Shown here in pieces: positions 18,827-56,417 of a DNA stretch of 64,000 nucleotides. Source of the DNA: a bacterium (lineage in GTDB: Bacteria > Desulfobacterota > DSWW01). Both the position numbers and the translations under genes were made by a program. The DNA is taken from the NCBI GenBank assembly GCA_028277985.1, contig JANQFG010000265.1, positions 6,832 to 70,831 of the forward strand, read 5' to 3'. Position 1 is the stretch's first letter; each line of letters opens with the position of its first letter. The notes under the pieces are model-generated. The model had not been told where the DNA came from and ran no database searches. It saw only the letters and a program-made list of their open reading frames with translations.

Positions 18827-18848
18827 ACAAAAGAGAAAAGAGGAGCCC

Positions 18849-24691: not shown

Positions 24692-24776
24692 AAGATCAAT
24701 AAAGACCCCGGGACGGAGTGGTCACCCGTGGTCCTTCTGTTTCTTGTCACCTCGACATGGCAAAGGGGGGAGGCAT

Positions 24777-28286: not shown

Positions 28287-28802
28287 ATGAAAGGAAGCGA
28301 TCGAGTGAAGGTGATTCAAGACTATTTCAACCTGATGGGAAAGACCTACATCATCCTCCTGAGCAGCCTCGATGAATTCCTCGGGTCTCCTCTCTCCACG
28401 AACGAGAAGGTGGTCCTGCAGATCCTTGATGAGGAACCGATCTCGATCAAGGAGGTCTCTCTCAGGACTGGGCTGGCCTTGTCCACCCTCACGAATGTCT
28501 TCGACAAGATGGAGGACAAGCGTCTGGTGAAGAGGCGGCACTCTCGCACGGATCGCCGCATGGTGAAGATCGAGCTGGACGTGGCCGGCCGTCGCCTTCA
28601 GTCCAGGTTCAACGATCTGATCAAGCAGATCTCTTCCACCTGGCTGGAAAGAGTTCCGGAGGAAGATGGCCGGAATTTCACTTCCGCCCTGGAGAAGACG
28701 GGGTTCTTCCTCTCTGTGGACAGTGAAGATTTTCAGGATGGATTGAGCTCTCTGATCGAGCCCCTGCAGATCACGCTGGCAAAGCAGTTCAAGAAAAGGT
28801 GA
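28287..28802 (+). CDS. MarR-family transcriptional regulator
   Basis: Winged-helix region: TNEKVVLQILDEEPISIKEVSLRTGLALSTLTNVFDKMEDKRLVKRRHSRTDRRMVKIELD. Confidence 0.85.
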   Translation: MKGSDRVKVIQDYFNLMGKTYIILLSSLDEFLGSPLSTNEKVVLQILDEEPISIKEVSLRTGLALSTLTNVFDKMEDKRLVKRRHSRTDRRMVKIELDVAGRRLQSRFNDLIKQISSTWLERVPEEDGRNFTSALEKTGFFLSVDSEDFQDGLSSLIEPLQITLAKQFKKR

Positions 28803-28856: not shown

Positions 28857-30917
28857 ATGACGATGCAGAAGAAACCAACGAAGCTGTTTGAACCGATCAT
28901 GGTCGGGAACATGCAACTGAGGAACCGGATCAAGATGCCTGCCATGGCCATCGCCATGGGAGAGGACGGAGGCATGTCCGAGGCGGCCAAGGCCTTCTAC
29001 GTCGAGCGGGCCAAGGGTGGCGTTTCGCTGATGGGTGTGAGTTGTACGGCGACCCCGTTGATCGAAGACCCGATGCTGGGTTTGTACGACGACCGGTTCC
29101 TTCCCGGCTTGAAGGACCTGGTGGATTCGGTTCGCCCTTACGGGGCGAGACTCTACACCCAGATGGGTGTGGGTTACAGCTGGGCCTTTGGGGACGGGCC
29201 GGTCGAACTGGTGAGCCCTTCGGGCCTGACCTGCTGGGGACGCCCCGGGACCCCTTTCCGCATGGGAGGGCCTTTCGAACCGACCATGCCGAAAGAACTC
29301 ACCGTGGAGGAGATTCAGCAGATCGTGGAGGCTTACGGTGACGGGGCCCGTCGAACCCAGGAGGCGGGCTTCGATGCGGTGGAGGTCATCGCTTCCGTGG
29401 GATACGTGACTGCCCAGTTCATCTCGCCCAAAACGAACAAACGCCAGGACCAGTACGGTGGTAGCCTGGAGAACCGGATGCGTCTCTTCCTCGAGATCAT
29501 CGAGAACATCAAGAAGAAGACGGGCGGCGATTTCCCGATCCTGGTGCGCATCAGCGGGGCCGATCTGCTGAACGATGGGGGATATGACCTGGAAGACACC
29601 AAGAAGATGGCGCCCATGCTGGAAAAGGCAGGGGTGAATCAGATCGATGTGATGGCGGGTTGGCACAATGCGCCCGTTGCCATGATCCAGACGCAAGTGG
29701 CCCAGGGGTCCTGGGTACACCTGGCGGAAGGGGTGAAGAGCGTCGTGAACATCCCCGTTGCCGCAGGGACACAGATCCAGGACATCGACGTGGCGGAACG
29801 GGTGGTGGCGGAGGGGCGCGTGGACATGGTCTACATGGCACGCGGCCTGGTGGCGGATCCTGAACTGCCTCGCAAGGCCCAGCAAGGCCGGCTCAAGGAC
29901 ATCCGACCCTGCATGAACTGCTGCCGTTGCATGTCCGCGTCCGACAATCCGCCGGTCCACTGCACGGTGAACGGACGCATGGGCAGGGAGTGGAAGTACC
30001 CGGAGGAACGGCCCGCCAAAGAGAACAAACGAGTGCTGGTTGTCGGGGGCGGTCCGGGCGGCATGGAGGCTGCCCGCGTTGCGACGCTGAGGGGCCATCG
30101 TGTGACCCTTTGCGAGAAGAATCCGAAATTGGGCGGAGCCATGCTCCTGAGCTCGATCACCAACCCACGGATCGGGCCTGTACTGAAGTACATGACGAGA
30201 CAGATCAAGGAGCTTTCCATCGATGTCAGGTTGAATACCGAAGTGACTCCGGCAGTCGTGAGGGAGGTAAACCCGGACGTGCTCGTGGTGGCACAAGGGG
30301 GCAAGGCTGCGCCGATGAACGTACCCGGTATCGATAAGGACATCGTGTTGAGTCGCAGCGACGCAGAGTCGATCCTTGGGGGAGGCCTGCCGCAGAAGGG
30401 AGGGCTGGTCCGCAGACTGCTTTCCCTGGGCGCTGCCCTGTTCGTCCGGCTCTTCTACAATCCGAAGGTGTTGCGGAAGCTCCTTCGGTTCCCCTTCCCC
30501 TTCAAGAAGCGGGTGGCCATCCTGGGAGGCGGGTTTGCGGGTGTGGAACTGGGAGAAACCCTGGTGGAGAATGGAAAGAAGGTTGCCATCGTTGAACCCT
30601 CCAAACGGATGGGCAGCGACATCGAGATCATCCACCGATGGGTCTTTCTGAAGCACTTGAGGGACGCGGGCGCGAATCTTCTCACCGAAGCGGAAGTCGT
30701 GGAGATTACAGACCAAGGGGTGAAGATCACGCAGGAAGGTTCACCTCAATTCATCGAGGCGGATACCGTGGTGCCGATCAACATCACCGCCAACAAGGAG
30801 CTGGCCGACACCTTCGAAGGCAGGGGGCCGCAGGTATTCGTCGTTGGGGATTGTGCGGAACCTGCGAAGCTCCAGGAGGCGATTACCGCGGGCTTTGTGG
30901 CGGGGCATGAGATGTAA
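28857..30917 (+). CDS. OYE-like FMN / [4Fe-4S] / FAD-NAD(P) oxidoreductase (2,4-dienoyl-CoA reductase FadH family)
   Basis: N-terminus LFEPIMVGNMQLRNRIKMPAM. Cys cluster PCMNCCRCM...VHC. Then VLVVGGGPGGMEAA and VAILGGGFAGVELG. ATG 28863 is the likelier start given the SD spacing. Confidence 0.85.
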   Translation: MTMQKKPTKLFEPIMVGNMQLRNRIKMPAMAIAMGEDGGMSEAAKAFYVERAKGGVSLMGVSCTATPLIEDPMLGLYDDRFLPGLKDLVDSVRPYGARLYTQMGVGYSWAFGDGPVELVSPSGLTCWGRPGTPFRMGGPFEPTMPKELTVEEIQQIVEAYGDGARRTQEAGFDAVEVIASVGYVTAQFISPKTNKRQDQYGGSLENRMRLFLEIIENIKKKTGGDFPILVRISGADLLNDGGYDLEDTKKMAPMLEKAGVNQIDVMAGWHNAPVAMIQTQVAQGSWVHLAEGVKSVVNIPVAAGTQIQDIDVAERVVAEGRVDMVYMARGLVADPELPRKAQQGRLKDIRPCMNCCRCMSASDNPPVHCTVNGRMGREWKYPEERPAKENKRVLVVGGGPGGMEAARVATLRGHRVTLCEKNPKLGGAMLLSSITNPRIGPVLKYMTRQIKELSIDVRLNTEVTPAVVREVNPDVLVVAQGGKAAPMNVPGIDKDIVLSRSDAESILGGGLPQKGGLVRRLLSLGAALFVRLFYNPKVLRKLLRFPFPFKKRVAILGGGFAGVELGETLVENGKKVAIVEPSKRMGSDIEIIHRWVFLKHLRDAGANLLTEAEVVEITDQGVKITQEGSPQFIEADTVVPINITANKELADTFEGRGPQVFVVGDCAEPAKLQEAITAGFVAGHEM

Positions 30918-31006: not shown

Positions 31007-32083
31007 ATGTCCAGAGTGATCGTGAGGAATTCGGACTTCGAGAGCCTGCGGGGAGCGATCGATCGTATCTTTCAAGACCTGGAGGTGGATCTGAAGGGAA
31101 AGAGCGTCCTGATCAAGCCGAATTTCGGCGCGGCCGTTGGGCCGGAGAAATCGGCGCTGACAGACGCTAGGGTGGTCAAGGCGGTGCTGGACGCCTGCCT
31201 CGAGCAGACCGGTGAGGTCATCATCGGGGACAACCCGGGAAATCTTGACACCAGAGCCATGCACACGATCGGGATGTCCGGGATTCTGGAACTGGCGAGC
31301 GACTTCTATTGCAACATCAGCCAGGGGGGGCAGTTTGTCGACATCGGCTCCGAGATCATCCCCAGGGTCTTCCTGTCCAGTCAGGTCACGGATGTGGACT
31401 ATGTGATCAACGTGCCGAAGATGAAGACCCACGTGCTCTGCGGACTATCCTGTTGTATCAAGAACCTCTACGGGTACGTGGTAGGCGCGCAGAAGGCGAG
31501 ATACCACCTGGAGTCGGGGAGCCTGAAGCGTCTCACCCAGTTGTGGCTCGACCTCTACAAATACCGAGCACCGAACCTGAACATCGTGGATGCGATCGTG
31601 GCCATGGAGGGTGGCGGCCCCACACACGGCAAACCGAGGCCCGTCGGAAAGATCGTGGCCGGAACGAACGGGTTTGAAGTGGATGTGGTGCTCACGACCA
31701 TGATGGGGTGGGACCCGAGGACGATGAAGATGCTGGAAATGGCCTGCGAACAGGGGTTGGGTGAGATCGATGTGGAGAGAATCGAGGTAGAGGGTGACTT
31801 CGAGATCCTCCCCGAGTTCGAGAAACCGCCTACCTTTGCAGCCATCGATCCGAAGTTCAACCCATACGAGGAAATCGTTCGTATTCGACCGAGCCTGGAC
31901 GAAGAGAAATGCGTCCTCTGCAGGCTCTGCGGGGACGAATCCTGTCCCGCAGAGGCGATATCCTTTGAAGAGTATCCAATCATCGATCCGGAGAAATGCA
32001 TCTCCTGCTACTGTTGTGTCGAATTCTGTCCCGAGGGGGCCCTGTTCGTCGAGTATGACAAGGAAATATTCGAGATTGCATAG
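31007..32083 (+). CDS. DUF362 domain protein with C-terminal 2x[4Fe-4S] ferredoxin domain
   Basis: Contains VLIKPNFG...PKMKTHVLCGLSCCIKNLYG...IVDAIVAMEGGGP, then CVLCRLCGDESCP and CISCYCCVEFCP. Confidence 0.7.
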   Translation: MSRVIVRNSDFESLRGAIDRIFQDLEVDLKGKSVLIKPNFGAAVGPEKSALTDARVVKAVLDACLEQTGEVIIGDNPGNLDTRAMHTIGMSGILELASDFYCNISQGGQFVDIGSEIIPRVFLSSQVTDVDYVINVPKMKTHVLCGLSCCIKNLYGYVVGAQKARYHLESGSLKRLTQLWLDLYKYRAPNLNIVDAIVAMEGGGPTHGKPRPVGKIVAGTNGFEVDVVLTTMMGWDPRTMKMLEMACEQGLGEIDVERIEVEGDFEILPEFEKPPTFAAIDPKFNPYEEIVRIRPSLDEEKCVLCRLCGDESCPAEAISFEEYPIIDPEKCISCYCCVEFCPEGALFVEYDKEIFEIA

Positions 32084-32100
32084 TGTGAGGGATGTTCGTC

Positions 32101-33417
32101 ATGCCTAAAAGCAAAGTGGATGCGCTCGTCATCGGGTCCGGTGTTGGAGGTCTCTGTGTGGCCGCCAGGCTGGTCGAGCAGGGGCTGAGTGTTTCGGTCA
32201 TTGAGAAGCTGCCTTATCTGGGAGGGCGGTTTTCTACCCGGGACATCAAGGGATTCAAGATCACGACCGGCGCCATCATGGTCCCCTTCGGCGAACGAAG
32301 CGCCTTCCATGAGACCTACCGTCTGATGGAGGCCCCGTTCAACGTGAGGGAAGGGAAGGGAGGATTCAGATACCGACTGAGTCACGGAGAGTACGATCCT
32401 CCTGCCGAAGGTGGAGGGGGGCTTCTCGGCATGCTCGAGTTCGCCACGGGGGATGAAGCAGCCGCCAAGGCGCTCTTTCGGCACTTCAGGCGTGCTCTCG
32501 GCTGGTGGGAACCCTCGGACACGATTTCTTTCGAAGAATGGCTGTCTCAGCATACGAGTCATCCGGAAGTCCATAACCTGCTTCAGGGGTTCTGCGCGGC
32601 CTTTATCGGTACCAGCATCAACGAGGTCCCGGCGGGCGAGTACTTCCGTTTCCTGAAGGCCATGGGAAGAAACAACCGGTATGGCATCGCGGTGAACGGG
32701 AACATCGAGCTCATGGAGTCCCTGGCCGAGTCCGTGGCGAACAGAGGGTCATCAGTCGTCACCAATGCCGCATGCAAGGGAATCCTGGTGGAAAAGGGCA
32801 GGGTTCGAGGGGCCCTGGTCGTTCGGGATGCAGTGGAGGAGCGTGTGGACGCGGATTTCGTGATCAGCAATGCCGGTCCGAATCGGACCATCCGGTTGGC
32901 GGGCGAGGAGAACTTCGAGAAGAGTTATCTGGCCCTTCTCAGGGAGCACCCGCATGCCACTCCGGTCTTTCACGTCTGTATTCGGAGCCCGGAGCCGCTG
33001 GATCCGTATCCCGGGATCATCAACTTCGGAAACACCCGGAGGCTCATCTTCCTCGAATGCCCGACCCTGACCTGTCCGGAGCTGGCGCCGGAAGGAATGC
33101 ATATCACCACCACCTTCAGCGTGCCGGAATCCTCAACCCCGCCCATCAAACGAAGGCAGACGATCGAGGAGATCATGGTCGATCTGGAGGAGAACTTCCC
33201 GTCCTTCCACAGAAAGAAAGCAGACGTGATGGTCACTGCCCATCACGCGGAGTGGCCATCCATGCGCAGGTGGCCGGGGCATCCGATGCCGACGAAGACA
33301 CCGGTCGAGAATCTATACAATGTGGGCGATGGATGCATGCCGCCGGGCACAGTGGGAATCGAGGCGTGTGCCTTGTCCGCAAAAGACGTGGCCCGACAGA
33401 TTTCGTCGGGCAGGTAG
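32101..33417 (+). CDS. CrtI-family FAD-dependent oxidoreductase
   Basis: Reads MPKSKVDALVIGSGVGGLCVAARLVEQGLSVSVIEKLPYLGGR, with C-terminal NLYNVGDGCMPPGTVGIEACALSA. ATG 32092 is the alternative start. Confidence 0.75.
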   Translation: MPKSKVDALVIGSGVGGLCVAARLVEQGLSVSVIEKLPYLGGRFSTRDIKGFKITTGAIMVPFGERSAFHETYRLMEAPFNVREGKGGFRYRLSHGEYDPPAEGGGGLLGMLEFATGDEAAAKALFRHFRRALGWWEPSDTISFEEWLSQHTSHPEVHNLLQGFCAAFIGTSINEVPAGEYFRFLKAMGRNNRYGIAVNGNIELMESLAESVANRGSSVVTNAACKGILVEKGRVRGALVVRDAVEERVDADFVISNAGPNRTIRLAGEENFEKSYLALLREHPHATPVFHVCIRSPEPLDPYPGIINFGNTRRLIFLECPTLTCPELAPEGMHITTTFSVPESSTPPIKRRQTIEEIMVDLEENFPSFHRKKADVMVTAHHAEWPSMRRWPGHPMPTKTPVENLYNVGDGCMPPGTVGIEACALSAKDVARQISSGR

Positions 33418-33458
33418 TCCGTTGGAACGAGGTTTCGAGAAAGAGAGAGGGGAGCGAG

Positions 33459-34808
33459 ATGGGTAACTGGGATGTTGTGATTGTTGGAGCGGGATTCGGA
33501 GGGCTTTGTTCTGGGGCGCTGCTGGCCCATGCGGGAAAGAAGGTCCTGGTGCTGGAGAAGGACAGCGCCATCGGAGGGCGCGCCAAGAGCATCCTGTATT
33601 CGGGCCAGGTCCTCGATGACGGCGCCCACATCCCCTCGAGGGCAGGGCACCTTGAATCGATCTTTGAAGACCTGGGAATTCCCTATCCGGAATTGGCGCA
33701 CATGGGCAAGAGCGAAATCTACCACGATGGGAAGTGGTGGGGGCCGAAAGAGCTCTTCACCAAAGACATGTACAAGAAGGTCTTCGGTGAGATGCTGCGC
33801 CTGTCCAAGGAGGAGATCGTCCAACTCGACGATCTGCCGTTGAGTGAATGGGTCAAGAGCGTGTCCGACGACCCGGGCATCCAGAAGCTGTTCTTCTATC
33901 TGGCCTGCTCGACGAGTGTGGGAAATCGTTTCGAGACCTACTCTGCCGGAGAGATGATCTACATCCTTCGGGAGTTCATTGACGGCGGTCGCAGCCTCAC
34001 GGAAATCGGGGGCGTGATCAAAGGCGGGATGAACAACATCCTGCAGCCCCTCACCGACTACATCAACGCCCACGGGGGCGAAGTGAGGCTGAATACACGG
34101 GTGGACAGTGTAGAGACCCGGGACGGAGAAGCTGTAGGGGTGAATCTGGAAGTGGGGGAACGTCTCTTCCACAGCCAGGTCCTGGACGTTGAGACGGAGA
34201 AGGCTGATTTTGTTATCGTCACGCTTCCGCTCAATGATCTATTCACCGTAATGGACGAGGACGCCTTTCCTAACTGGTGGGTGGACTGGGTGAACTACAT
34301 CGGCACCAAGGTCAGCCACGCCTGGAGCATCATCTACGGCCTGGACGAACCTCTGTTCGACACACAGACCTTCCGGTGGGCTCCGAACCTTCCTGAATCC
34401 GGATTCTCCGGGATCTTCTATCCCATGCCCTCGTATGGAGACGACGTGAACCAGTACCAGTTCCACGTCTCCTACCAGGGGCACTACGACGAAATGCCGG
34501 ATCTGCTCAAGGGGAGCCGGGCGCGGGTCAGACGACAGATTCGAGATACGATTGCCATGCTGGAGCGGGAGTCGATTGCATTCTTCCCACAGTTGAAGGA
34601 CAAATACCGCTGGCGAGTTGCCCATGCGGGGGTCTACGGGATTGCACAGTCGCCCGGATTCGTGGGCACCAAACGGCCGTCCATGAAGGTGCCGGGATAC
34701 AGCAATCTCTACGTGGTGTCGAACACCGTGCAGGAAGCGAGAGGCATCAGCATGTCTGCCATTGGACGATGTGCGCGGATGGCAAGTGAGGCCATTGTAA
34801 ATACATAG
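33459..34808 (+). CDS. CrtI-family FAD-dependent oxidoreductase
   Basis: Reads MGNWDVVIVGAGFGGLCSGALLAHAGKKVLVLEKDSAIGGRA. The listed ORF 32772.. is an upstream open-frame extension that overlaps the previous gene. Confidence 0.75.
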   Translation: MGNWDVVIVGAGFGGLCSGALLAHAGKKVLVLEKDSAIGGRAKSILYSGQVLDDGAHIPSRAGHLESIFEDLGIPYPELAHMGKSEIYHDGKWWGPKELFTKDMYKKVFGEMLRLSKEEIVQLDDLPLSEWVKSVSDDPGIQKLFFYLACSTSVGNRFETYSAGEMIYILREFIDGGRSLTEIGGVIKGGMNNILQPLTDYINAHGGEVRLNTRVDSVETRDGEAVGVNLEVGERLFHSQVLDVETEKADFVIVTLPLNDLFTVMDEDAFPNWWVDWVNYIGTKVSHAWSIIYGLDEPLFDTQTFRWAPNLPESGFSGIFYPMPSYGDDVNQYQFHVSYQGHYDEMPDLLKGSRARVRRQIRDTIAMLERESIAFFPQLKDKYRWRVAHAGVYGIAQSPGFVGTKRPSMKVPGYSNLYVVSNTVQEARGISMSAIGRCARMASEAIVNT

Positions 34809-34832
34809 TTGGCGAGAAAGGTCACAAGGAAT

Positions 34833-35285
34833 ATGCCCAAGAAATTGCTCTCTAAACCGGCTCTGTGCGTGAATTGCAGGACGTGCGAGATGTCCTGCTC
34901 CCTCGAGAAGAGCGGCATGTTCAACCCGGTCAAGGCGAGAATCTGGATCCAGAAGAACAAGAAGGGCCTGGATGCGCCCATGATCTGTAGGCACTGTCTG
35001 GCTCCTCCCTGCGAAAAGGCATGCCCTGTCGAGGAGGAGAAGCCGATCTTGCGCGACAAGCAGACGGGCATCGTCCGTGTTTCACTGAAGACCTGCATTG
35101 GGTGCTATGAGTGCGTCTCGGCATGTCCCTTTGGTGCCATGCGAGTAGATCCCCACACGGGCCAGGTCTTCAAGTGCGATCTCTGCGACGGAGATCCGGA
35201 GTGTGTGAAGTGGTGCCCCACCGGGGCGATTCAGTATGTGGACACAAAAGCGATCGGCACGGTGAGTTCAGCCGACAAAGGGTAG
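34833..35285 (+). CDS. Polyferredoxin (multiple 4Fe-4S motifs), AOR electron-transfer subunit-like
   Basis: Contains CVNCRTCEMSC, CRHCLAPPCEKACP, CIGCYECVSACP and CDLCDGDPECVKWCP. It sits immediately upstream of the AOR gene. Confidence 0.8.
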   Translation: MPKKLLSKPALCVNCRTCEMSCSLEKSGMFNPVKARIWIQKNKKGLDAPMICRHCLAPPCEKACPVEEEKPILRDKQTGIVRVSLKTCIGCYECVSACPFGAMRVDPHTGQVFKCDLCDGDPECVKWCPTGAIQYVDTKAIGTVSSADKG

Positions 35286-35303: not shown

Positions 35304-37211
35304 ATGTACGGCTGGGCCGGAAGCCTGTTACGCGTCAATCTGACGGATCGGAAGATACAGAAGGAGGAATACCCGGAGGCCCTGAGGCATCAATTCATCG
35401 GTGGGAGAGGCGTGAACTCGCGCCTGCTCTACAGTGAGGTCAAGCCCGGGATCGATCCGCTGGGGCCCGAAAACAAGCTCTTCTTCGGCACCTCGCCCCT
35501 GACGGGTACCGGCCTGATTACCTCGGGGAGGATCCACGTCACGGCCAAGTCGCCGCTCACGGGGATCCTGGGGGATTCGAACGCAGGGGGACATTTCGGT
35601 CCCGAGCTGAAGTGGGCGGGATATGACCACATCATCATCGAGGGAGCCGCAGACAAGCCTGTCTACTTGTGGATCGACGACGATCAGGTGGAGATCCGGG
35701 ACGCCGGCCATGTCTGGGGGAAGGTGGTTTCCGAGACCTATGCGACCCTCTGGGACGAACTGGGGGACCCTCGCATTCGGATTGCCACCATCGGACCGGG
35801 AGGAGAGAATCTCGTCCGGTTCGCATCCCTCATGACGGATTACGGAAACGCCTGCGGCAAGACCGGCATGGGCACGGTGATGGGGTCGAAGAATCTCAAG
35901 GCCGTCGCGGTTCGGGGGACGAAGGGCTTTCGGGTGGCGGACCCGGAGCGATTCAAAGAGATCGCCAGAGATTGGATCAGAAAGATCAAGAAAGGGCCTA
36001 CCTACGAGAGCTTCTCCAAGTTCGGCACCTTGTCGTACCTGACGCAGTATCATTCCCAGGGAAGGTCCGTCGCGAGGAATGCCCAGGTGACGGCCGATAT
36101 CGACTACATCGACAACTACGATGCGAAGAGCATGATGAAGCATATGACGAGGAGCGTCGCGTGCTTCGGCTGTCCGATACACTGCAAACACGAATTCAAG
36201 GTCAAGAAGGGCCCGTTTGGGGGAGAACACGGTCACGGCACCGAATTCTGCATCATGAGCGCACATGGACCTGCCTGTGGCAACACCGATGAGGCGGCCG
36301 TGCTGAAGATCAACAATATCTGCAACGAATACGGAATCTGCGGAGATACATCCGGGATCACCATGGCTGCGGCCTTTGAATGGTATCAGCGGGGGATCAT
36401 TTCCAAGGAAGACACGGACGGGATTCCTCTCGAATGGGGCAACGCAGAGGCCCAGATCGAGATGTTGATGAGGACGATCCGGAGAGAGGGGTTTGGGGAC
36501 CTCCTGGCGGATGGTTCGGCCCTGGCAGCGGAAAAGATAGGAAAGGGGGCTGAGAAGTACATATCCCACACCAAAGGGAGCGACATCGATCAGGTTGACA
36601 TTCGAACGCTCAAGGGATGCGCCCTGTCGGACGCTGTTTCGAGTCGCGGCGCGGACCCGCAGAGGGGATGGCCGGGGGTCGAGTTCTATCCCATGAAACC
36701 GGCAACCGCAATGAAGCTCTTCGGAAACGAAAACGCAGCGAACCCGAGGTCCTATGAAGGCAAGGGCTCGCTGGTAGATTTCTACACGTCCATCTGCACC
36801 ATGTGCGATGCCCTGGGGATCTGCAAGTTCTCCAGCGCATGGTTCAGTACGCCCATCTATCTGAAGCACATGGGGCAATTGGTCGAGGCTGCTACCGGCG
36901 TGGATTTCAACGAGAAGAAGATGACGGAGATCGCCGCGAGGATCAACAACGTGGAACGAGCCTACCTCGTCAGAGAAGGGATCACGCGCAAAGACGATAC
37001 GATCCACGGCAGGGCCATGGAGGAGCCGGTTCCGTCGGGCCCGTACGAGGGCGAGCGGTTGGATCAGGAAGGCTTGGACAGGATGTTGGACGACTACTAC
37101 AAGGTTGTCGGGTGGGACAAGAAGACAGGTGCACCCACCCGGAAGACACTCGAAAACCTGGGGTTGCAGGATGTCGCGGATGAGCTCGCGGACATGGGCA
37201 AGATCACATAG
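35304..37211 (+). CDS. Tungsten-type aldehyde:ferredoxin oxidoreductase (AOR family)
   Basis: Canonical N-terminus MYGWAGSLLRVNLTDRKIQKEEYP...FIGGRGVNSRLLY...GPENKLFFGTSPLTGT. Length is 635 aa. Confidence 0.9.
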   Translation: MYGWAGSLLRVNLTDRKIQKEEYPEALRHQFIGGRGVNSRLLYSEVKPGIDPLGPENKLFFGTSPLTGTGLITSGRIHVTAKSPLTGILGDSNAGGHFGPELKWAGYDHIIIEGAADKPVYLWIDDDQVEIRDAGHVWGKVVSETYATLWDELGDPRIRIATIGPGGENLVRFASLMTDYGNACGKTGMGTVMGSKNLKAVAVRGTKGFRVADPERFKEIARDWIRKIKKGPTYESFSKFGTLSYLTQYHSQGRSVARNAQVTADIDYIDNYDAKSMMKHMTRSVACFGCPIHCKHEFKVKKGPFGGEHGHGTEFCIMSAHGPACGNTDEAAVLKINNICNEYGICGDTSGITMAAAFEWYQRGIISKEDTDGIPLEWGNAEAQIEMLMRTIRREGFGDLLADGSALAAEKIGKGAEKYISHTKGSDIDQVDIRTLKGCALSDAVSSRGADPQRGWPGVEFYPMKPATAMKLFGNENAANPRSYEGKGSLVDFYTSICTMCDALGICKFSSAWFSTPIYLKHMGQLVEAATGVDFNEKKMTEIAARINNVERAYLVREGITRKDDTIHGRAMEEPVPSGPYEGERLDQEGLDRMLDDYYKVVGWDKKTGAPTRKTLENLGLQDVADELADMGKIT

Positions 37212-37237: not shown

Positions 37238-37627
37238 ATGGAAGACCAAGTTAGACAGACGATTGAGTCGTATTTTCGGCTGGTGAACGAGGAGAAGTTC
37301 GACGAGTTCTTCGATCTGTTCGACCCGGACGTGGAGTTCAAGGCACCCTTCAATTTCACCGCCCGGGGGCTCGAAAATGTGAAACCCTTCTATCTGCAGG
37401 TCCCGGTGAACTATCCCCATCACGTGGATACGCCTGAAGAGATCCTCGTCTCGGGGAACAGGGCAGCGGTCTTCATCGACTTCGTGGGCACCTCCAAAGA
37501 GGGGATTGCCATGGCCTTCAAGGCAACGGACTGGTTTCGCATCGAAGACGGGAAGATCAAATCGCTGAACATCTTTTACGACAGCCATCATCTCGCGAGG
37601 GTAGGATCGGGGAAGAAGAAAAGTTAG
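37238..37627 (+). CDS. NTF2/SnoaL-like (ketosteroid-isomerase-fold) protein
   Basis: 129 aa. Contains IESYFRLVNEEKFDEFFDLFDPDVEF...WFRIEDGKIKSLNIFYD. Confidence 0.65.
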   Translation: MEDQVRQTIESYFRLVNEEKFDEFFDLFDPDVEFKAPFNFTARGLENVKPFYLQVPVNYPHHVDTPEEILVSGNRAAVFIDFVGTSKEGIAMAFKATDWFRIEDGKIKSLNIFYDSHHLARVGSGKKKS

Positions 37628-37631
37628 TGTC

Positions 37632-37673
37632 AAGTGGCAAGTGGCAGGTGGCGAGTGGCAAGTGGCGGGCGGC
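37632..37673. repeat. Heptamer tandem array (RRGTGGC)x6
   Basis: AAGTGGC AAGTGGC AGGTGGC GAGTGGC AAGTGGC GGGCGGC begins 5 nt after the TAG stop of the NTF2 gene. Confidence 0.75.
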
Positions 37674-37703
37674 AAGATGTGAGCAAGGCACCTGGTGAGG
37701 GGG

Positions 37704-37775
37704 CAGGCCGAAACTATCAACCCTAGTCACACTCGGTTCGTCAGCCGTGCCACCAGGGTTGATAGTTTCGGCCTG
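37704..37775. repeat. 21-bp perfect inverted repeat with 30-nt loop
   Basis: CAGGCCGAAACTATCAACCCT (37704-37724) and AGGGTTGATAGTTTCGGCCTG (37755-37775), verified base by base. Confidence 0.8.
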
Positions 37776-37830
37776 ACCCCATTTTGGCTGCAGAGTCCCG
37801 GCAGGCCGTCATGACGGTTTGGGCGAAGTG

Positions 37831-37904: not shown

Positions 37905-38729
37905 ATGGGCTTGCTCGACGGCAAAGTGGCGGTTGTGACGAATTCCGGTACCGAGGTGGGGCAGGCCATCGCCCTCCTGATGGCCGACGAAGGCGCCCGC
38001 CTGGTGGTGCACGATTCCGAAACCCTTGCGCAGGAGATCCGGGAAAGGGGAAGTGAGGCTGTGGCCTTCATGGTACCCGTGTCCTCCTGGGAAGGAAGCC
38101 ACGATCTGGTCCAAACCGCAGTGGAGCATTTCGGTCGGCTGGATATGCTGGTCAACAACGCGGACCACACCACGGGCATCCGGGATCGGTTGCTATCCGA
38201 CATGAGCAAAGAGGAGTGGGAGGGAGTTGCGAAGGCTCAACTCAAGGCCTCGTTTCTCTGTGCCCGGGCCGCGGCTCCGCAGATGCGAAGCCAACGTCAG
38301 GGCCGCCTCATTCACTTTGCCCTTCCCGAAGCTCTCATCGGGGGCACGGGGCGTACCCATCAGGGGGCAGCCCAGATGGCTGTCGTAGGTCTAAGTCGCA
38401 ACGCAGCCATAGAACTGGAGCGATACCATGTAACCTCGAATTGTATCGTCCCCTGCGACGGGCCCGGAGGGGGGCCGGAGCCGACGGATGTGGCCCCGCT
38501 GGCCGTCTTCCTGGGCAGTGATGCTGCCGAGGGCATTTCCGGCCAGATCTTCGGTGTTAGGGCAAAGGAGATCTTCCTCTTCTCCCAGCCCCGTATCCAA
38601 CGTAGCATCCACAATTCACGGGGGTGGACGCCGGAGAGGCTTTCTGCGATATTCGAAACGACCATGGGGCCCCATTTCACTCCCTTGGAGTCCTCGGACG
38701 CTTATTTCTCGTGGGATTTGGACCTGTAG
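37905..38729 (+). CDS. SDR-fold protein lacking the catalytic and cofactor motifs (predicted pseudoenzyme subunit)
   Basis: Paralog of the next gene, but TGAGRGLG is replaced by TNSGTEVG, NNAG by NNAD, and NYGAAK by HQGAAQ. Confidence 0.75.
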   Translation: MGLLDGKVAVVTNSGTEVGQAIALLMADEGARLVVHDSETLAQEIRERGSEAVAFMVPVSSWEGSHDLVQTAVEHFGRLDMLVNNADHTTGIRDRLLSDMSKEEWEGVAKAQLKASFLCARAAAPQMRSQRQGRLIHFALPEALIGGTGRTHQGAAQMAVVGLSRNAAIELERYHVTSNCIVPCDGPGGGPEPTDVAPLAVFLGSDAAEGISGQIFGVRAKEIFLFSQPRIQRSIHNSRGWTPERLSAIFETTMGPHFTPLESSDAYFSWDLDL

Positions 38730-38735
38730 GGGGGT

Positions 38736-38765
38736 GGCATGGGCACGGGTACGCGTACGGGCAGG
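38736..38765. repeat. Hexamer micro-repeat GGCATG GGCACG GGTACG CGTACG GGCAGG
   Basis: Read directly in the spacer between the two SDR genes. Confidence 0.55.
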
Positions 38766-38834
38766 AGAGGGACATGACCGTCAAACGTCAACAAACCCTG
38801 TTTGAGAATCTGGAGCAAGGCAAAGGGGTGCCAA

Positions 38835-39752
38835 GTGGGCATACTCGATGGTAAGGTTGCTGTGGTCACGGGTGCCGGCAGGGGACTCGGCCGGGGCATG
38901 GCCCTTCATCTAGCCCGTGAAGGGGCAAGGGTCGTGGTGAATGATCTAGGGGGGTCCGTGCACGGAGAGGGCAAGGACGGATCGGTAGCCGAACAGGTGG
39001 TGGATGAGATCAGGGCAGACGGCGGCGAAGCCGCGGCAAATGCCGATACGGTGGCTTCCTGGGAGGGTGGACAGCGAATCGTGCAAACGGCCTTCGATCT
39101 GTATGGTCGTTTGGACATCCTGATCAACAATGCCGGCATTCTGCGGGATCAGCCCTTTTGGAGGATGACCGAAGAGGAATGGGATGCTGTTCTTGACGTA
39201 CATCTCATGGGTTCGTTCCACTGTACGCGTGCTGCGGTACCCTTCATGCAGCAACAGAAATGGGGGCGGGTCCTTTTCATCACTTCCACCGCCGGGTTCA
39301 TCGGGACCATAGGACAGTGCAATTACGGTGCAGCCAAGATGGGGGTGCTCGGGCTGAGCCGCAGCCTCGCTGTGGAAATGCAGGAATACAACATCACCTC
39401 CAACTGTATCGCCCCTTTTGCCTGGACGAGGATCCCGGCCTCCATTCCTGCGGTAACGGATGAGATCAAGGAAAGTGTGGATCGTCTGTTCAAGGACATG
39501 GAGCCGGAGGACGTGTCACCCCTGGCCGTCTTTCTCGCGGGGGAGGGCGCGGATGGGATATCGGGGCAGGTTTTCGGTGTTCGGGGCAAGGAGATCTACA
39601 CATTCAACCAGCCCCGGGTGGTACGCAGCATTCACAAGGCGGAAGGCTGGAGCGCACGGGATCTCGCCGATCTGATCGGGCCCACGTTCAAACAGCATTT
39701 GACACCTCTAGATAATTCGATCACCTTTTTCGATTGGGACGCTCTCTTGTAG
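38835..39752 (+). CDS. SDR-family dehydrogenase, MFE-2/hydroxyacyl-CoA-dehydrogenase-like (catalytically intact)
   Basis: GTG start. Motifs TGAGRGLGRGMA, NNAGILRD, ITSTAG and NYGAAKMGVLGLSRSLAVE are all present. Confidence 0.8.
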   Translation: MGILDGKVAVVTGAGRGLGRGMALHLAREGARVVVNDLGGSVHGEGKDGSVAEQVVDEIRADGGEAAANADTVASWEGGQRIVQTAFDLYGRLDILINNAGILRDQPFWRMTEEEWDAVLDVHLMGSFHCTRAAVPFMQQQKWGRVLFITSTAGFIGTIGQCNYGAAKMGVLGLSRSLAVEMQEYNITSNCIAPFAWTRIPASIPAVTDEIKESVDRLFKDMEPEDVSPLAVFLAGEGADGISGQVFGVRGKEIYTFNQPRVVRSIHKAEGWSARDLADLIGPTFKQHLTPLDNSITFFDWDALL

Positions 39753-39769
39753 CAAAGGATCGTCACGCA

Positions 39770-40960
39770 ATGAGCGAGGAAAGAGAGGAATCTGAGGGGC
39801 ATCTGGATATTCCGATTCCCTTTGAAGAGTTGCCTCCCCACAGACAGAAACGGATCCGACGGTACGTCTATCTCGGTGGTCTGGTGTTTCTGGTGCTGGT
39901 CGTTACCTTCGTGGCCGGACTGTTTGGCGTTACGGCGAAGAAGAAGCGGCAGGCGGTGGAGGAGTGGCAGTCTCCGGGCATACCGGTGAGGGTGCTCGAA
40001 ATGGCGGCTGTCGACCTGAACGAGGTCGTAGAGGCGACCGGTGTGATTCAGGCCCGACAGGAGGTCACCGTGTACCCGGAGGTCACGGCCAAGGTGACGC
40101 GAATCGAGGCGGACCTGGGCGACACGGTTGGGAAGGACTCGCCCCTGGTCATCCTGGACGACGAGTTGATGGGCCTGCGGGTAAAGCAGATTCGGGCCCA
40201 GATCACGAAGCTCACGGCCATGTGCGAGGACGCCGAGAAGAGCCTGAAACGAAAGGAGAAGCTCTTTCGGCGGAAGACCGTCTCCGAGTCGGATCTGGAT
40301 CAGGCGATTCTGGCCGATCAGACGAATCGAGGATTGCTCGAAGAGGCGAATGCACAACTCGAAATGGCACTCTACGATCTTCGACATGCGACGGTCCGGT
40401 GCCCGATTCAGGGGAACGTTACGGAACGATTCCTCGAAGTGGGCAGCCTCGCCTCGCCCAAAACGGCGGTAGCCAGAATCGTCAATATCGACCAGGTCAA
40501 GGTCGAGGTCGGGTTGGTCGACGATGAGGTGAAGCGGGTGCGGGTGGGCCAGGAAGTGGACCTCCGGGTGGACGCCTTTCCGGATCAAGTATTCATGGGA
40601 CACGTGACCGCCGTCGGGAGCCAGGCGGATGCCCAGACCCTGACATTCCCCGTCCGCGTAGAGTGGGAAAACAGAGAGCATCAGCTCCTGCCCGGTATGA
40701 TCGCGAGGGTTTCGATCCGGGTCGAGCGCCACAAGGGGGCTCTCGTTGTTCCAAGAGAGATTATTCGCGACGAGGGAGGTCGCCTCGCCGTGTTTGTTGT
40801 CGAGGATTCAACAGCCAGGAAGCGTTTCGTCACCCTGGGCCCCCGGGAAAAGGAGAATGTGGTTGTATCCTCCGGACTCGAGGAAGGGGACAGGGTGGTT
40901 TGGGTAGGGCACGAAATCCTCGACGATGGATTGAAAGTTCAGATCGACACGGGAGAATGA
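39770..40960 (+). CDS. RND efflux periplasmic adaptor (HlyD/MFP family)
   Basis: N-terminal TM helix, a coiled-coil hairpin region, and a barrel region (VRCPIQGNVTERFLEVGS...VFVVEDSTARKRFVTLG). Confidence 0.8.
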   Translation: MSEEREESEGHLDIPIPFEELPPHRQKRIRRYVYLGGLVFLVLVVTFVAGLFGVTAKKKRQAVEEWQSPGIPVRVLEMAAVDLNEVVEATGVIQARQEVTVYPEVTAKVTRIEADLGDTVGKDSPLVILDDELMGLRVKQIRAQITKLTAMCEDAEKSLKRKEKLFRRKTVSESDLDQAILADQTNRGLLEEANAQLEMALYDLRHATVRCPIQGNVTERFLEVGSLASPKTAVARIVNIDQVKVEVGLVDDEVKRVRVGQEVDLRVDAFPDQVFMGHVTAVGSQADAQTLTFPVRVEWENREHQLLPGMIARVSIRVERHKGALVVPREIIRDEGGRLAVFVVEDSTARKRFVTLGPREKENVVVSSGLEEGDRVVWVGHEILDDGLKVQIDTGE

Positions 40961-41005: not shown

Positions 41006-44000
41006 GTGAGCGTTGCCGAGTTCTCCGTAAGGAATACAGTGCTCGTGAACATCCTGATGATCGCCATCCTGGTCATCGGTGTGTTCTCTTTTATCCACCT
41101 TCCTCGTGAACTGCTCAGTGAAGTCTCCCTGAACTGGGCCATGGTCATCGCCCCGTATCGTGGAGCCTCGCCCAAGGAAATCGAACAGCTCGTTACGATT
41201 CCGATCGAAGACGAGATCAAGGACATCGACGGCATAGACTTCATCTCCTCCAAATCCACCGAAGGCTACACGGTCTTGGATGTCAAGTTCGAGGAGATGA
41301 GCAAAGCGGACTTCCGCTATGCCATCCAGGAACTCAAGAGCCGTGTGGACGGCATCGATGACCTGCCCGAGGATGTGGATGACATCGAGGTGAACGAGTT
41401 CGACACCTCGGATGTGCTTCCGGTCATCAACATCACGGTGAGCGGCAGCATTCCGGAAAGGCAGCTCAGGGACATTGCGGATCACCTTACCGATCAGATC
41501 AGGGACATCCCACACGTATCCCAGGTGGAGAAGATGGGGATGCGGGATCGAGAGATCTGGGTGGAGGTGGACCCGCAGCGGATGTACAACTTCGACCTGA
41601 CGTTTCCGGAAGTGATGCAGGCTGTGGCGGTCAAGAACCTGAATGTGCCGGGTGGGAAGCTGCGGTCCGGACGAAGCGAGTTTCTGCTTCGGACCGTGGG
41701 GGAGATCGACGCCGCCGAAGACCTGAGACAGGTGATCCTTCGCCAGACCCCGGGCGGCCGACAGGTGGCGGTCAGCGATGTGGCCGAAGTGAACGAGACA
41801 TACGACAGCGACATGGGGACGATCTCACGCATGGATGGGCGTCCGTCCATCACCCTGTCCGTTTCCAAGAAGTCGGCCGGGAATTCGTTAAGAATCATTG
41901 AAGAGGTCAAGCAGGTCGTCAGGGAGACGAGCGACCGACTCCATGGCGAGGTGAACCTCGGGGGAACGGTGGAGTTCGACGTAGACAGCCGTGAGCACTT
42001 TCTGAAGTTCACCTCCTCCTGGGACAGTTCGATCGATATCGAGGACAGCCTGGGTACGCTCGAGAACAATGCGATGGTGGGACTCGGTATCGTGCTGGTG
42101 CTGCTCTACTTCTTCCTCGGACTCAGGTATGCCTTCATCGCTGCACTCGGAATGACCCTCTCCTTTCTGGGTACCTTCATCTTCATGTCCTATACCGGCA
42201 TTTCGTTCAACGGGAATTCCCTTTTCGGGCTCGTCCTGGTCATGGGAATCGTAGTGGACGACGCAATCATCATCCTCGAGAACTGCTATCGGTACCTCGG
42301 GATGGGTTTCAGCTCCAGGGAAGCCGCCATACGGGGGGCGAACGAGGTGGTTGCCCCGGTAACCTCTGCGATCCTGACGACGATCTCCGCGTTCCTGCCC
42401 CTTATGTTGTTACCCGGCGTGATCGGCAGATTCATGCGGGTCATCCCCCTGGTGGTCTCTATGGCCCTGATCGCTTCGCTGATAGAGGCATTCGTCATTC
42501 TCCCCACGCATTTTGCCGAATGGACCGGGTCGAAACCGTCGGTCAAGAAGAATCGCCTTCTGGATTTGCTGAACCACTACTATCCTCGGATTCTGAGAGG
42601 GAGCCTGCGGTTTCGGTATGTCTTCGTCGGTGTGGGCCTTCTGACCTGTCTCGCTTCCGCTTTCCTGATTCCGTCTCTCGGAGTCGACCTGTTCCAGGGC
42701 GATGAGTTGCCGCGATTCATGGTGTACGTGGAGATGCCCACAGGTACGAGCCTCGAGGTCACAGACGGTGTGATTCGACGCATCGAGGAGGAAGCGCTGA
42801 CCCTGCCCAGGGACGACGTCACTTCCGTGGTGGCCGTCGCCGGACTCATGCAGGAGGAGGACTGGACGGTCACGTCCTCTGTGGGCCAGATCATCGTGGA
42901 TCTGAAGCCTGCCTCGGAACGAAAGCGCAGTGTCGAGGAATTGATGGACATGCTGCGCCGCAGGACAGCGCACATCAGCGGGCCGAAAAACGTTCGATTC
43001 AAGAAGATGATCAGCGGACCGCCGACCGGCAAGCCGGTGGAGATCAAGGTGAAGGGAAAGGACTTCGTCAAACTGAAGGAAATAGCGGATCTGCTCAAGG
43101 CGGAGCTGCGAAAGATGCCGGGCGTGTACGACGTGGGCGACAATTTCTCTCCGGGCAAGCAGGAAATCAAGATTCGGCTCGACGAGGACAAGGCGGGGCT
43201 CTTCGGCCTGAGTGTAGCCCAGGTGGCGGAGACGATCCAGGCCGCGTATCAGGGAGGGGAGGCCTCGATCTGGCGGGACAAGGATGAGGAGGTGAAGATC
43301 TACGTGAAGCTCGCAGAGCAATGGCGCAGACACCCGGAGGATCTCCTGCGCCTCAAGATCGGGACCCCCACCGGGTTTCACGTGCCTTTGAGCAAGATAG
43401 CCCATCTGGATATCGAACAGGGATACGCGGAGATCAGGCGCTTCAAGAACGAGAGGGCCATCACCGTACATGCGGAAATAGACAAGAAACAGACGAGCGC
43501 CATCGAGGTGAACAGCGAAATCGAGGAGAAGGGGGGAGATCTCCTGGCTCGCTTCCCCGGATACCAGATCGATTTCGAAGGGGAGTTCAGAGAGTTTCGA
43601 GAAACCTTCGACAACATCCTGCAGCTCTTCATGGTCGGTGTGTTCCTCATCTACCTGATCCTGTCCGGACAGTTCCGGAGTTTTGTCCAACCTCTGATCA
43701 TCCTGTTCACCGTTCCCTTCGCATTCCTGGGCGCCATGGTGGGGATTCTGATCATAGGGGCCAAGTTCTCGACGATCACCATGTACGGAATCGTGGCGCT
43801 GGCAGGGATCGCGGTGAACGATGCGATCGTGCTGATCACGTTCATCAACAATGCCAGGGCGCGAGGGGCGAGCCGGTATGCTTCGGTGGTGGAGGCGGGG
43901 ATGCTCAGGCTACGGCCGATCATTCTGACGAGTTTTACCACGATCGGCGGGCTGCTCCCCATGGCGGTCGGTCTGGGCGGACATTCGGAGAGTTGGGCGC

Positions 44001-44158
44001 CTCTGGCGAATACGATCATCTGGGGAATGATGTCGGCCACAACCCTGACCTTGTTGATCATACCTGCCGTGTACACGATCATTGTCGACGATATCGCTAC
44101 ACCGATCCGGCTGAGAATTCGATCGCTGTTGAACCTCCCGGAGGAAGCCCACCCATAA
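41006..44158 (+). CDS. RND efflux permease (AcrB/HAE family)
   Basis: 1050 aa with 12-TM RND topology. N-terminus reads FSVRNTVLVNILMIAILVIGVFSF. Conserved GIVVDDAIIILEN and GIAVNDAIVLI motifs are present. Confidence 0.9.
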   Translation: MSVAEFSVRNTVLVNILMIAILVIGVFSFIHLPRELLSEVSLNWAMVIAPYRGASPKEIEQLVTIPIEDEIKDIDGIDFISSKSTEGYTVLDVKFEEMSKADFRYAIQELKSRVDGIDDLPEDVDDIEVNEFDTSDVLPVINITVSGSIPERQLRDIADHLTDQIRDIPHVSQVEKMGMRDREIWVEVDPQRMYNFDLTFPEVMQAVAVKNLNVPGGKLRSGRSEFLLRTVGEIDAAEDLRQVILRQTPGGRQVAVSDVAEVNETYDSDMGTISRMDGRPSITLSVSKKSAGNSLRIIEEVKQVVRETSDRLHGEVNLGGTVEFDVDSREHFLKFTSSWDSSIDIEDSLGTLENNAMVGLGIVLVLLYFFLGLRYAFIAALGMTLSFLGTFIFMSYTGISFNGNSLFGLVLVMGIVVDDAIIILENCYRYLGMGFSSREAAIRGANEVVAPVTSAILTTISAFLPLMLLPGVIGRFMRVIPLVVSMALIASLIEAFVILPTHFAEWTGSKPSVKKNRLLDLLNHYYPRILRGSLRFRYVFVGVGLLTCLASAFLIPSLGVDLFQGDELPRFMVYVEMPTGTSLEVTDGVIRRIEEEALTLPRDDVTSVVAVAGLMQEEDWTVTSSVGQIIVDLKPASERKRSVEELMDMLRRRTAHISGPKNVRFKKMISGPPTGKPVEIKVKGKDFVKLKEIADLLKAELRKMPGVYDVGDNFSPGKQEIKIRLDEDKAGLFGLSVAQVAETIQAAYQGGEASIWRDKDEEVKIYVKLAEQWRRHPEDLLRLKIGTPTGFHVPLSKIAHLDIEQGYAEIRRFKNERAITVHAEIDKKQTSAIEVNSEIEEKGGDLLARFPGYQIDFEGEFREFRETFDNILQLFMVGVFLIYLILSGQFRSFVQPLIILFTVPFAFLGAMVGILIIGAKFSTITMYGIVALAGIAVNDAIVLITFINNARARGASRYASVVEAGMLRLRPIILTSFTTIGGLLPMAVGLGGHSESWAPLANTIIWGMMSATTLTLLIIPAVYTIIVDDIATPIRLRIRSLLNLPEEAHP

Positions 44159-44174
44159 CGAGAAAGAGGACACC

Positions 44175-44600
44175 ATGGACGAGAAGAAACTTCAGACGCT
44201 GCTGGACCGAATGGAGATCATCGACACACAGAATCGCTACGCAACCGGAGTCGACACCCGGGACCGGGATTTGTATCGTTCCTGCTTCACGGACGAAATG
44301 GAATTGGACATGTCCGGGATGGGCCTGGGTGAGCCGATGACCCTATCCGCGGACATGTGGGTTGACCAGGCCATATCGCTGGTCAGCGGGTTCGAATCTA
44401 CCCAGCATATCATCACCAACCACGTGATCAGCATCGAAGGGGATAGGGCGACCTGCGTCGCCTATCTGCAGGCTCAGCACTATAACCCTGAGAACATGTA
44501 CACGGTGGGAGGCTACTACAGCAACTCGCTTGTCAGAACCCCTGACGGCTGGAAAATCAGCAAACTCAAGCTGACCCCTGCCTGGACGCAAAACACATAG
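44175..44600 (+). CDS. NTF2/SnoaL-like domain protein
   Basis: 141 aa. Contains LLDRMEIIDTQNRYATGVDTRDRDLYRSCFTDE...GGYYSNSLVRTPDGWKISKLKL. Confidence 0.65.
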   Translation: MDEKKLQTLLDRMEIIDTQNRYATGVDTRDRDLYRSCFTDEMELDMSGMGLGEPMTLSADMWVDQAISLVSGFESTQHIITNHVISIEGDRATCVAYLQAQHYNPENMYTVGGYYSNSLVRTPDGWKISKLKLTPAWTQNT

Positions 44601-50770: not shown

Positions 50771-50887
50771 GATCCGTCCCCCCTTTTTGATGAGGTGATC
50801 AAGCGGCAATCATGGTAAGCATCCAGATCCATATCCGGTCGTCAGGAACTACGTTCCGTCCGCACATCTCAACACAGGATTCGTGTC

Positions 50888-53047: not shown

Positions 53048-53069
53048 ACAGAAGACCCCACTCTGAAGA

Positions 53070-55028: not shown

Positions 55029-55070
55029 GGTGGCTCCTTTCTGACGAAGAGTACCTCGACTGTGGGTCCT

Positions 55071-56274: not shown

Positions 56275-56417
56275 TAGAGCATAGGAAACTTGACCGATGG
56301 GACAATTTTTTCGTTGACCCCCCAATGAAACGGCATGCCGGGGCAAGGGGGTTGGCGAATCATTCGGGGTCCGAGGGTTTCAAATCCCCAATGAGCAGCC
56401 AGGAAGGAGTCGTCACC

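Follow-up and report, generated by a model that had tools for sequence, protein, structure and literature searches.

Two adjacent genes encoding short-chain dehydrogenases/reductases (SDRs) are present in a 64,000-nucleotide stretch of DNA from a bacterium of the Desulfobacterota (contig JANQFG010000265.1, positions 6,832 to 70,831), which is referred to here as the window. The downstream gene encodes SDR-B, a protein with all motifs of a catalytically competent enzyme, and the upstream gene encodes SDR-A, a paralog that has lost its catalytic residues and is nevertheless maintained by purifying selection. SDR-A is probably a pseudoenzyme partner of SDR-B, with the two chains joined in a heterodimer of the MFE-2 type, and a probability of about 60% is given to this reading. 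The physical association of the two proteins, its stoichiometry, the loss of nicotinamide adenine dinucleotide (NAD) binding and the nature of the substrate are parts of it that we infer from sequence comparisons and structure models.

SDR-A and SDR-B align end to end with 44% identity (BLASTP, E 1e-85), and the active-site region is aligned without gaps. Both belong to the classical SDR superfamily, with scores for Pfam adh_short (PF00106) of 102 bits for SDR-A and 167 bits for SDR-B at a cut-off of 26.6. The SDR-A gene starts with an ATG preceded by a purine-rich ribosome-binding stretch, and the identical 274-amino-acid gene is called in public assemblies (P0001). The two genes are in the same reading frame, and a read-through from one into the other contains two stop codons. 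In SDR-B the motif set is complete: the glycine loop TGAGRGLG, the NNAG motif, the Ser of ITSTAG located 13 residues before the Tyr, and the Y-x3-K arrangement in NYGAAK. At the corresponding positions of SDR-A, the glycine loop reads TNSGTEVG, NNAG is replaced by NNAD with three additional residues inserted after it, and Ser/Tyr/Lys are replaced by Leu/Gln/Gln. By these residues SDR-B qualifies as a catalytically competent classical SDR and SDR-A does not. SDR-A also has two deletions, one of 14 residues behind strand B and one of 20 residues in the substrate-binding loop. The blocks GRLD.L.NNA, EEW, VGLSR...TSNCI.P and PLAVFL...GISGQ.FGVR.KEI are common to both proteins.

An earlier reading of this DNA, here called the original prediction, had described an intact SDR next to a paralog that keeps the fold-defining blocks and is stripped of every catalytic and cofactor motif. 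The description is accurate for the intact enzyme, for the missing triad and for the common blocks. For the cofactor site it is accurate with respect to the glycine loop and the NNAG position, with the nuance that SDR-A retains the last Gly of the loop and the Asp that ends strand B (VHD). Since a Glu occupies the position of the second loop Gly, binding of NAD by the SDR-A copy of the window is unlikely. The original prediction had also allowed for a triad that is present in SDR-A in a shifted position. This candidate was rejected: the active-site stretch GGTGRTHQGAAQMAVVGLSR contains neither a Tyr nor a Lys, and no clade-specific invariant polar residue that could replace the triad is found in the alignment of SDR-A orthologs.

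Sequence matches and predicted folds assign both proteins to the (3R)-hydroxyacyl-coenzyme A (CoA) dehydrogenases of the MFE-2/ChsB1 type and not to the BbsC/BbsD lineage. The top phmmer match of SDR-A is yeast MFE-2 (2et6, 141 bits), and SDR-B matches the same protein with 353 bits and human HSD17B4 (1zbq) with 217 bits. BbsD (7pcs_B) is a mid-list match, with 93 bits to SDR-A and 133 bits to SDR-B, and BbsC is not among the best 60 sequence matches. The NCBIfam model PRK07791 is the best model for both SDRs, with scores below its cut-off. The AlphaFold2 model of SDR-B (predicted local distance difference test, pLDDT, 86) has the rat MFE-2 dehydrogenase 1gz6 as its best Foldseek match (42% identity and a root-mean-square deviation (rmsd) of 2.8 Å over 278 columns), followed by 3qlj, 1zbq and ChsB1 of Mycobacterium tuberculosis (7lg9). 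The model of SDR-A (pLDDT 92.3) has an SDR fold, and 7ulh, 3qlj, 1gz6 and 7lg9 are among its top Foldseek matches. The cores of the models superpose on FabG-type structures at an rmsd of about 2 Å, and full-length alignment of SDR-A to 3qlj, 7ulh, 1gz6 and ChsB1 gives an rmsd of 12-14 Å. Such high full-length values are expected if the C-terminal module has another position in the monomer model of SDR-A than in the crystals, where it is swapped.

This C-terminal module is a feature of both proteins. SDR-A and SDR-B carry an extension of about 50 residues (QPR..RSIH...GW...) that is highly conserved between the two and in their relatives and aligns to 3qlj, 7lg9 and domain B of the yeast enzyme, with Foldseek alignments spanning 278-300 columns. 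Yeast MFE-2 contains two dehydrogenase domains in one chain, and both match SDR-B. ChsB1 and the homologous MFE-2-type dehydrogenases are dimers, in which the largest interface is formed by two long helices, and the C-terminal beta9/alpha11 motif reaches outward to join the sheet of the second monomer in an 'almost knot-like' interface (PMC8204306). The dehydrogenase unit of human MFE-2 is active only when dimeric, and disease mutations are located where the C-terminal subdomains cross, near the substrate-binding area (PMC3538638). For SDR-B, NAD-dependent oxidation of a (3R)-hydroxyacyl-CoA is predicted, and the acyl-CoA dehydrogenase (ACAD) gene nearby and the acyl-CoA ligase gene of related loci are consistent with this activity.

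The maintenance of SDR-A is evident from its orthologs. A search covering about 5.8 billion proteins returned the identical protein and about 31 clusters with 60-70% identity and lengths of 260-299 amino acids; below these lies an identity gap, followed by intact enzymes of 304/305 amino acids at 54% identity or less. No frame disruption is found in the approximately 32 ortholog clusters. The catalytic Lys is absent from every member of this clade, with Gln or Glu in its place, and this is the sole catalytic loss common to all SDR-A orthologs. The residue at the Tyr position is variable (Q, H, Y, D, L, E, P or C), and the first loop Gly is nearly always Asn. In the majority of the orthologs the Ser is retained, as are two of the three glycines of the loop (TNAGxGMG), and a His directly before the Tyr position (THxGA) is common. 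The ortholog alignment contains 52 invariant columns.

The ratio of nonsynonymous to synonymous substitutions (dN/dS) was calculated by the Nei-Gojobori method on codon alignments from seven genomes, using pairs with unsaturated dS. Values of 0.27-0.33 were obtained for SDR-A and 0.10-0.16 for SDR-B, so that SDR-A is constrained, but two to three times less than its neighbor. The dN/dS values well below 1 and the conservation across orthologs show that purifying selection acts on SDR-A and that the gene is not decaying. The distribution of this constraint was examined as mean pairwise identity per structural element in seven genome-matched pairs of SDR-A and SDR-B. In helix F (0.78 in SDR-A and 0.81 in SDR-B) and the C-terminal hairpin (0.75 and 0.83) the two proteins are conserved to a similar degree, and strand F and helix G of SDR-A are also conserved near the SDR-B level. 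The values differ widely in the glycine loop (0.47 and 1.00), the loop after NNAG (0.33 and 0.70), the Ser strand (0.58 and 0.88), the pre-Tyr loop (0.56 and 0.94) and the substrate loop (0.25 and 0.90). Selection on SDR-A protects the elements that form the dimer and is relaxed on the elements of the cofactor and active site.

The two genes are also retained as a pair. In L002-L008 and L026, the gene downstream of the SDR-A-type gene, in the same orientation, is an SDR-B ortholog with 74-83% identity and intact motifs, and the gap between the two genes is as small as 3-10 nt in some loci. Taken together, the orthologs of SDR-B are 74-85% identical to it, and their motifs are intact. Among the loci whose DNA was fetched, a same-strand upstream paralog accompanies the SDR-B-type gene without exception, in 12 distinct loci (L002-L008, L026, L039-L044). 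The upstream paralog is thus also present beside more divergent SDR-B-type genes (63-72% identity to SDR-B), where its state varies. Over the 12 loci it is intact in two (S/Y/K in L039 and L044) and degenerate in ten, with differing substitutions: the Ser/Tyr/Lys positions of the degenerate partners read L/Q/Q, S/H/Q, S/H/T (L040), S/L/S (L041), S/C/S (L043), P/E/M (L026) and P/A/F (L042). These varied replacements fit a long-standing release from catalytic constraint inside a retained pair. No second close paralog is present in the DNA fetched around the related 304-amino-acid enzymes of L009-L025.

In a neighbor-joining tree, the upstream partners form the sister clade of the SDR-B clade, with the intact partners basal and the degenerate ones on long derived branches. 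Since upstream partners occur in both intact and variously degenerate forms, the tandem pair appears to be older than the loss of catalysis. The simplest reading of the sequences is an old tandem duplication, after which the pair was retained and catalytic constraint was later lost in the upstream copy. A separate event is visible between L004 and L006, which have about 96% DNA identity over the flanks including SDR-B and about 88% over the block of CrtI-like, aldehyde:ferredoxin oxidoreductase (AOR), SnoaL and SDR-A genes. The divergent block extends over approximately 4270-10780 (L004 locus coordinates), and its breakpoint lies exactly between the two SDR genes. SDR-B has 98% amino acid identity between these loci (dS 0.075) and SDR-A has 81% (dS 0.32), a pattern that looks like recombination inside the operon.

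Given that interface constraint is kept in SDR-A and that the gene is invariably adjacent to an intact paralog, a heterodimer of SDR-A and SDR-B with one active site is the most economical explanation. Both genes would descend from an old tandem duplication of a (3R)-hydroxyacyl-CoA dehydrogenase of the MFE-2/ChsB1 type, and their products would form a heterodimer, possibly further assembled into a higher complex of heterodimers. An alpha-beta heterodimer is a better prediction than an alpha2-beta2 tetramer like that of BbsCD, because the MFE-2/ChsB1 family forms domain-swapped dimers. As in every solved family member, the long helices E and F would join the chains, and each chain would insert its C-terminal strand/helix module into the other. 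SDR-B would hold the sole NAD-dependent active site, and SDR-A, with its own cofactor site and substrate lid lost, would act as a non-catalytic scaffold that stabilizes SDR-B. The C-terminal module of SDR-A would pack against the substrate pocket of SDR-B and shape its entrance. The substrate would probably be a bulky hydroxyacyl-CoA made by the surrounding anaerobic gene cluster, whose products include a tungsten-type AOR, SnoaL proteins, CrtI-like flavoproteins, a BaiCD-like enoate reductase, an ACAD and, in relatives, an acyl-CoA ligase, and for which a bulky acyl-CoA is plausible.

Several points weigh against this heterodimer. Adjacency and co-retention would also be expected for two separate homodimers acting in one pathway. 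No asymmetry is seen at the strand-crossing residue (the equivalent of human Trp249), which is an invariant Gln in SDR-A, SDR-B and unpaired relatives alike. Most SDR-A orthologs keep two loop glycines and the Asp of strand B, and some nucleotide binding may thus persist among them. The tree carries no support values, and its long branches may attract each other. In addition, L004 and L006 indicate that SDR-A alleles can be exchanged against a near-constant SDR-B, in this case along with the upstream neighbors of SDR-A, and with the breakpoint at this position, tight co-adaptation of particular SDR-A and SDR-B alleles is not required.

In a different explanation, the two proteins form independent homodimers. 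SDR-B would be the dehydrogenase, and SDR-A would work by itself, without catalysis, in a new function within this pathway. It might, for instance, bind or escort a hydrophobic intermediate (an acyl-CoA or a steroid-like compound), or it might dock to AOR or to the SnoaL protein, which are encoded just upstream. In L004 and L006, SDR-A recombines with the AOR-SnoaL block and not with SDR-B, and the adjacency of the SnoaL and SDR-A genes is conserved as much as that of the two SDR genes. SDR-A is also under purifying selection and is predicted to fold confidently alone (pLDDT 92), and the pairs in which both members are intact (L039, L044) could be two separate enzymes. However, SDR-A has lost the substrate-binding loop, in which such a ligand would be expected to be held, and its conservation is lowest in this region and highest in the dimerization elements. 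Also, no MFE-2-type SDR that acts as a free-standing ligand carrier is known to us. Two homodimers are considered rather unlikely.

It is very unlikely that SDR-A is still an enzyme that uses relocated or different residues for a non-canonical reaction of the isomerase, dehydratase or decarboxylase type, beside SDR-B in the pathway. Some proteins classed as pseudoenzymes by sequence later proved to be active (PMC10211241), and the frequent His directly before the Tyr position, together with the Ser and partial glycine loop kept in many orthologs, could be read in this sense. Against this, the Tyr position varies freely among the orthologs, no clade-specific invariant polar residue exists beyond those common with SDR-B, the substrate lid is deleted, and the cofactor loop, Ser strand and substrate loop are the least constrained parts of the protein. 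Next to no credence can be given to a decaying pseudogene or an annotation artefact without function. The SDR-A copy of the window is without all canonical motifs and the protein evolves two to three times faster than SDR-B, as a decaying gene might, but about 32 clusters with 60-70% identity have an undisrupted reading frame, the model fold is confident, and a ribosome-binding stretch precedes the ATG. The pseudogene was rejected on a dN/dS of about 0.3 and on conservation, including the 52 invariant columns. The heterodimer of SDR-A and SDR-B is preferred over these explanations.

The original prediction had set the pair beside BbsCD (2022, PDB 7pcs), with an obligate heteromer of an active and an inactive SDR as the expected outcome. 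According to a published summary, BbsCD is likewise encoded by adjacent genes for an active and a pseudoenzyme SDR and acts on a bulky hydroxyacyl-CoA in anaerobic catabolism, and the C-terminus of its inactive subunit reaches the groove of the active subunit (PMC13418739). The parallel stands in that an intact and a motif-less SDR are adjacent and the dead one is kept by selection. It does not extend to kinship, as both proteins of the window score higher with MFE-2 than with BbsD and thus represent another SDR lineage. BbsCD is also an alpha2-beta2 tetramer of classical FabG-like SDRs without the C-terminal module of MFE-2. Neighbors of the bbs type (BbsEF, BbsG, BbsH, BbsAB) are not found at the SDR pair, and a CoA-transferase, hydratase or thiolase is not found among the scanned open reading frames of the window. 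The origin of the pair appears to be independent, and by these comparisons it is analogous to BbsCD and not closely homologous.

Other SDR assemblies offer further comparisons. In the same account, BbsCD and the benzaldehyde synthase of petunia are both described as SDR heteromers acting on CoA thioesters, in which the C-terminus of the dead subunit completes the site of the live subunit (PMC13418739). The petunia enzyme is an alpha2-beta2 complex in which the beta subunit is without the catalytic Lys and is needed for assembly; its C-terminus forms part of the CoA site of alpha, and restoring the Lys gave no activity (PMC13418739). Unlike the pair in the window, it is a peroxisomal, NADPH-dependent thioester reductase of plants from another SDR branch and a tetramer, with subunits that are about 30% identical. 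Human HSD17B8-CBR4 (Venkatesan et al. 2014) is also an alpha2-beta2 SDR heterotetramer in which one subunit type serves mainly as scaffold, but both subunits keep their catalytic residues and cofactor sites, and it belongs to a different SDR branch (cited in PMC13418739).

The closest structural relatives are the MFE-2-type enzymes (1gz6, 1zbq, ChsB1 7lg9 and Candida tropicalis MFE-2 2et6), the family to which SDR-A and SDR-B belong by sequence and predicted fold. These are dimers with swapped modules, and their substrates can be bulky, with steroid side chains among them. All characterized members have two catalytically intact partners, whereas SDR-A is without the motifs, the substrate lid and the 14 residues that follow strand B. 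The Candida tropicalis enzyme pairs two diverged dehydrogenase domains in one chain, while SDR-A and SDR-B are separate polypeptides. Yeast MFE-2 reportedly forms an internal heterodimer (Ylianttila et al. 2006). The principle of an active SDR with a dead partner is already established, and SDR-A/SDR-B is an independent new instance.

The SDR pair is part of a gene cluster (Table 1) that is syntenic across metagenome-assembled genomes assigned to Thermodesulfobacteriota/Syntrophobacteria. Wherever a locus shows the region (L002-L006, L039, L042, L044), the SnoaL-like gene immediately precedes the SDR pair, and the AOR-SnoaL-SDR-SDR core recurs even in distant loci. A pair of resistance-nodulation-division (RND) efflux genes is located between the SDR-B and SnoaL_4 genes in the window and in L002, and is absent there in L003-L006. 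In relatives, the downstream order is SnoaL_4, acyl-CoA ligase and ACAD. No curated NCBIfam family reaches its cut-off for the cluster proteins scanned, and a literature search for a cluster combining AOR, CrtI-like, old yellow enzyme and SDR genes returned nothing relevant. It has been considered that uncultured Thermodesulfobacteriota use the AOR-SnoaL-SDR-SDR core and the flavoenzymes in a so far undescribed pathway that requires no oxygen and acts on a bulky lipid, such as a hopanoid, a steroid or an isoprenoid carboxylate, with the dead SDR as an obligatory, specificity-determining subunit; this proposal is distinctly speculative and, taken as a whole, improbable.

Table 1. Genes of the SDR pair and its surroundings, with positions in the window.
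Feature	Position	Strand	Basis
MarR regulator	28287-28802	+	Pfam/NCBIfam; same order in L002-L006
BaiCD/2,4-dienoyl-CoA-reductase-like Fe-S flavoenzyme	28857-30917	+	Pfam/NCBIfam; same order in L002-L006
DUF362+Fer4 protein	31007-32083	+	Pfam/NCBIfam; same order in L002-L006
CrtI/HpnE-like flavoproteins (two)	32092-33417, ~33456-34808	+	Pfam/NCBIfam; same order in L002-L006
AOR Fe-S subunit	34809-35285	+	NCBIfam ferredoxin-like matches; synteny
AOR catalytic subunit	35304-37211	+	Pfam AFOR_N/AFOR_C; synteny
SnoaL-like protein, 129 amino acids	37238-37627	+	Pfam SnoaL_2/SnoaL; synteny
SDR-A, predicted pseudoenzyme subunit, 274 amino acids	37905-38729	+	Translation; alignment to SDR-B; Pfam adh_short
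SDR-B, predicted catalytic subunit, 305 amino acids, GTG start	38835-39752	+	Translation; PDB sequence matches; AlphaFold2 model
RND efflux pair (membrane-fusion protein and AcrB-type pump)	39734-40960, 41006-44158	+	Pfam
SnoaL_4 protein	44175-44600	+	Pfam
ACAD, 614 amino acids	44715-46559	+	Pfam

In two distant loci, two adjacent ACAD genes of about 380 amino acids each flank the SDR pair (L039, 11268-13579; L040, 3431-5798) in place of the single 614-amino-acid ACAD. Paired genes of this kind are reminiscent of steroid side-chain degradation, in which the ACADs are heteromeric. The SnoaL-like and SDR-A genes are separated by a 277-bp gap, which contains about seven AAGTGGC-like heptamer repeats (37623-37681) and, upstream of SDR-A, an inverted repeat with 34-nt arms (37699-37732 and 37747-37780) that are 88% complementary and 14 nt apart; the arm sequence is confined to this site within the window. 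A promoter and terminator scan around the SDR pair found no more sites than in shuffled sequence.

Multiple flavoprotein genes have been observed in the window. At least seven are of the CrtI/amine-oxidase type (12621-14273, 18555-21737, 21797-24691, 24744-26333, 26424-27935 and the two listed in Table 1), a concentration that is unusual for 64 kb, and two of the encoded proteins, of about 1000 amino acids each, are fused to a GltD-like module of Fer4_20 and Pyr_redox_2. Three other proteins of about 1000 amino acids (1972-4917, +; 47846-50809, -; 56325-59339, +) contain FAD_binding_4 (VAO-type) and FAD-oxidase_C domains, with FAD_binding_4 matched in two stretches and best at residues ~510-675. 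A molybdopterin oxidoreductase gene (50888-53137, -) adjoins the gene of one of these FAD_binding_4 proteins. An open reading frame of 677 amino acids (53811-55844, +) has a coding-like G+C content at third codon positions (0.65), and none of the Pfam models matches it at E 1e-5. A TetR regulator gene (59676-60335) at the 3' end of the window is followed by two genes, one for a protein in which Fer4 and nitroreductase are fused (60369-61283) and one for a LuxE-like acyl-protein synthetase (61318-62655).

To our knowledge, BbsCD and the plant benzaldehyde synthase are the only two systems in which a pair of an active and a dead SDR subunit has been elucidated. If the reading given here is true, SDR-A and SDR-B would be a third, independent origin of such a pair, in the MFE-2/ChsB1 branch, where the quaternary structure is a knot-like swapped dimer and not a tetramer. 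The range from pairs with both members intact to pairs with a variously degenerate member would provide an unusually complete natural series, in which the contribution of the silent subunit and the order of heteromer formation and loss of catalysis could be addressed. If the more speculative proposal of an obligatory dead subunit in a lipid pathway is true as well, the loci from intact/intact to intact/dead would record the stepwise locking of a homomeric enzyme into a heteromer with one silent site. Annotation pipelines label both genes 'SDR family oxidoreductase', and those who express only SDR-B, or who enter SDR-A into a metabolic model as a dehydrogenase, would probably be misled. The SDR pair is also a convenient handle on a conserved, uncharacterized anaerobic redox cluster.

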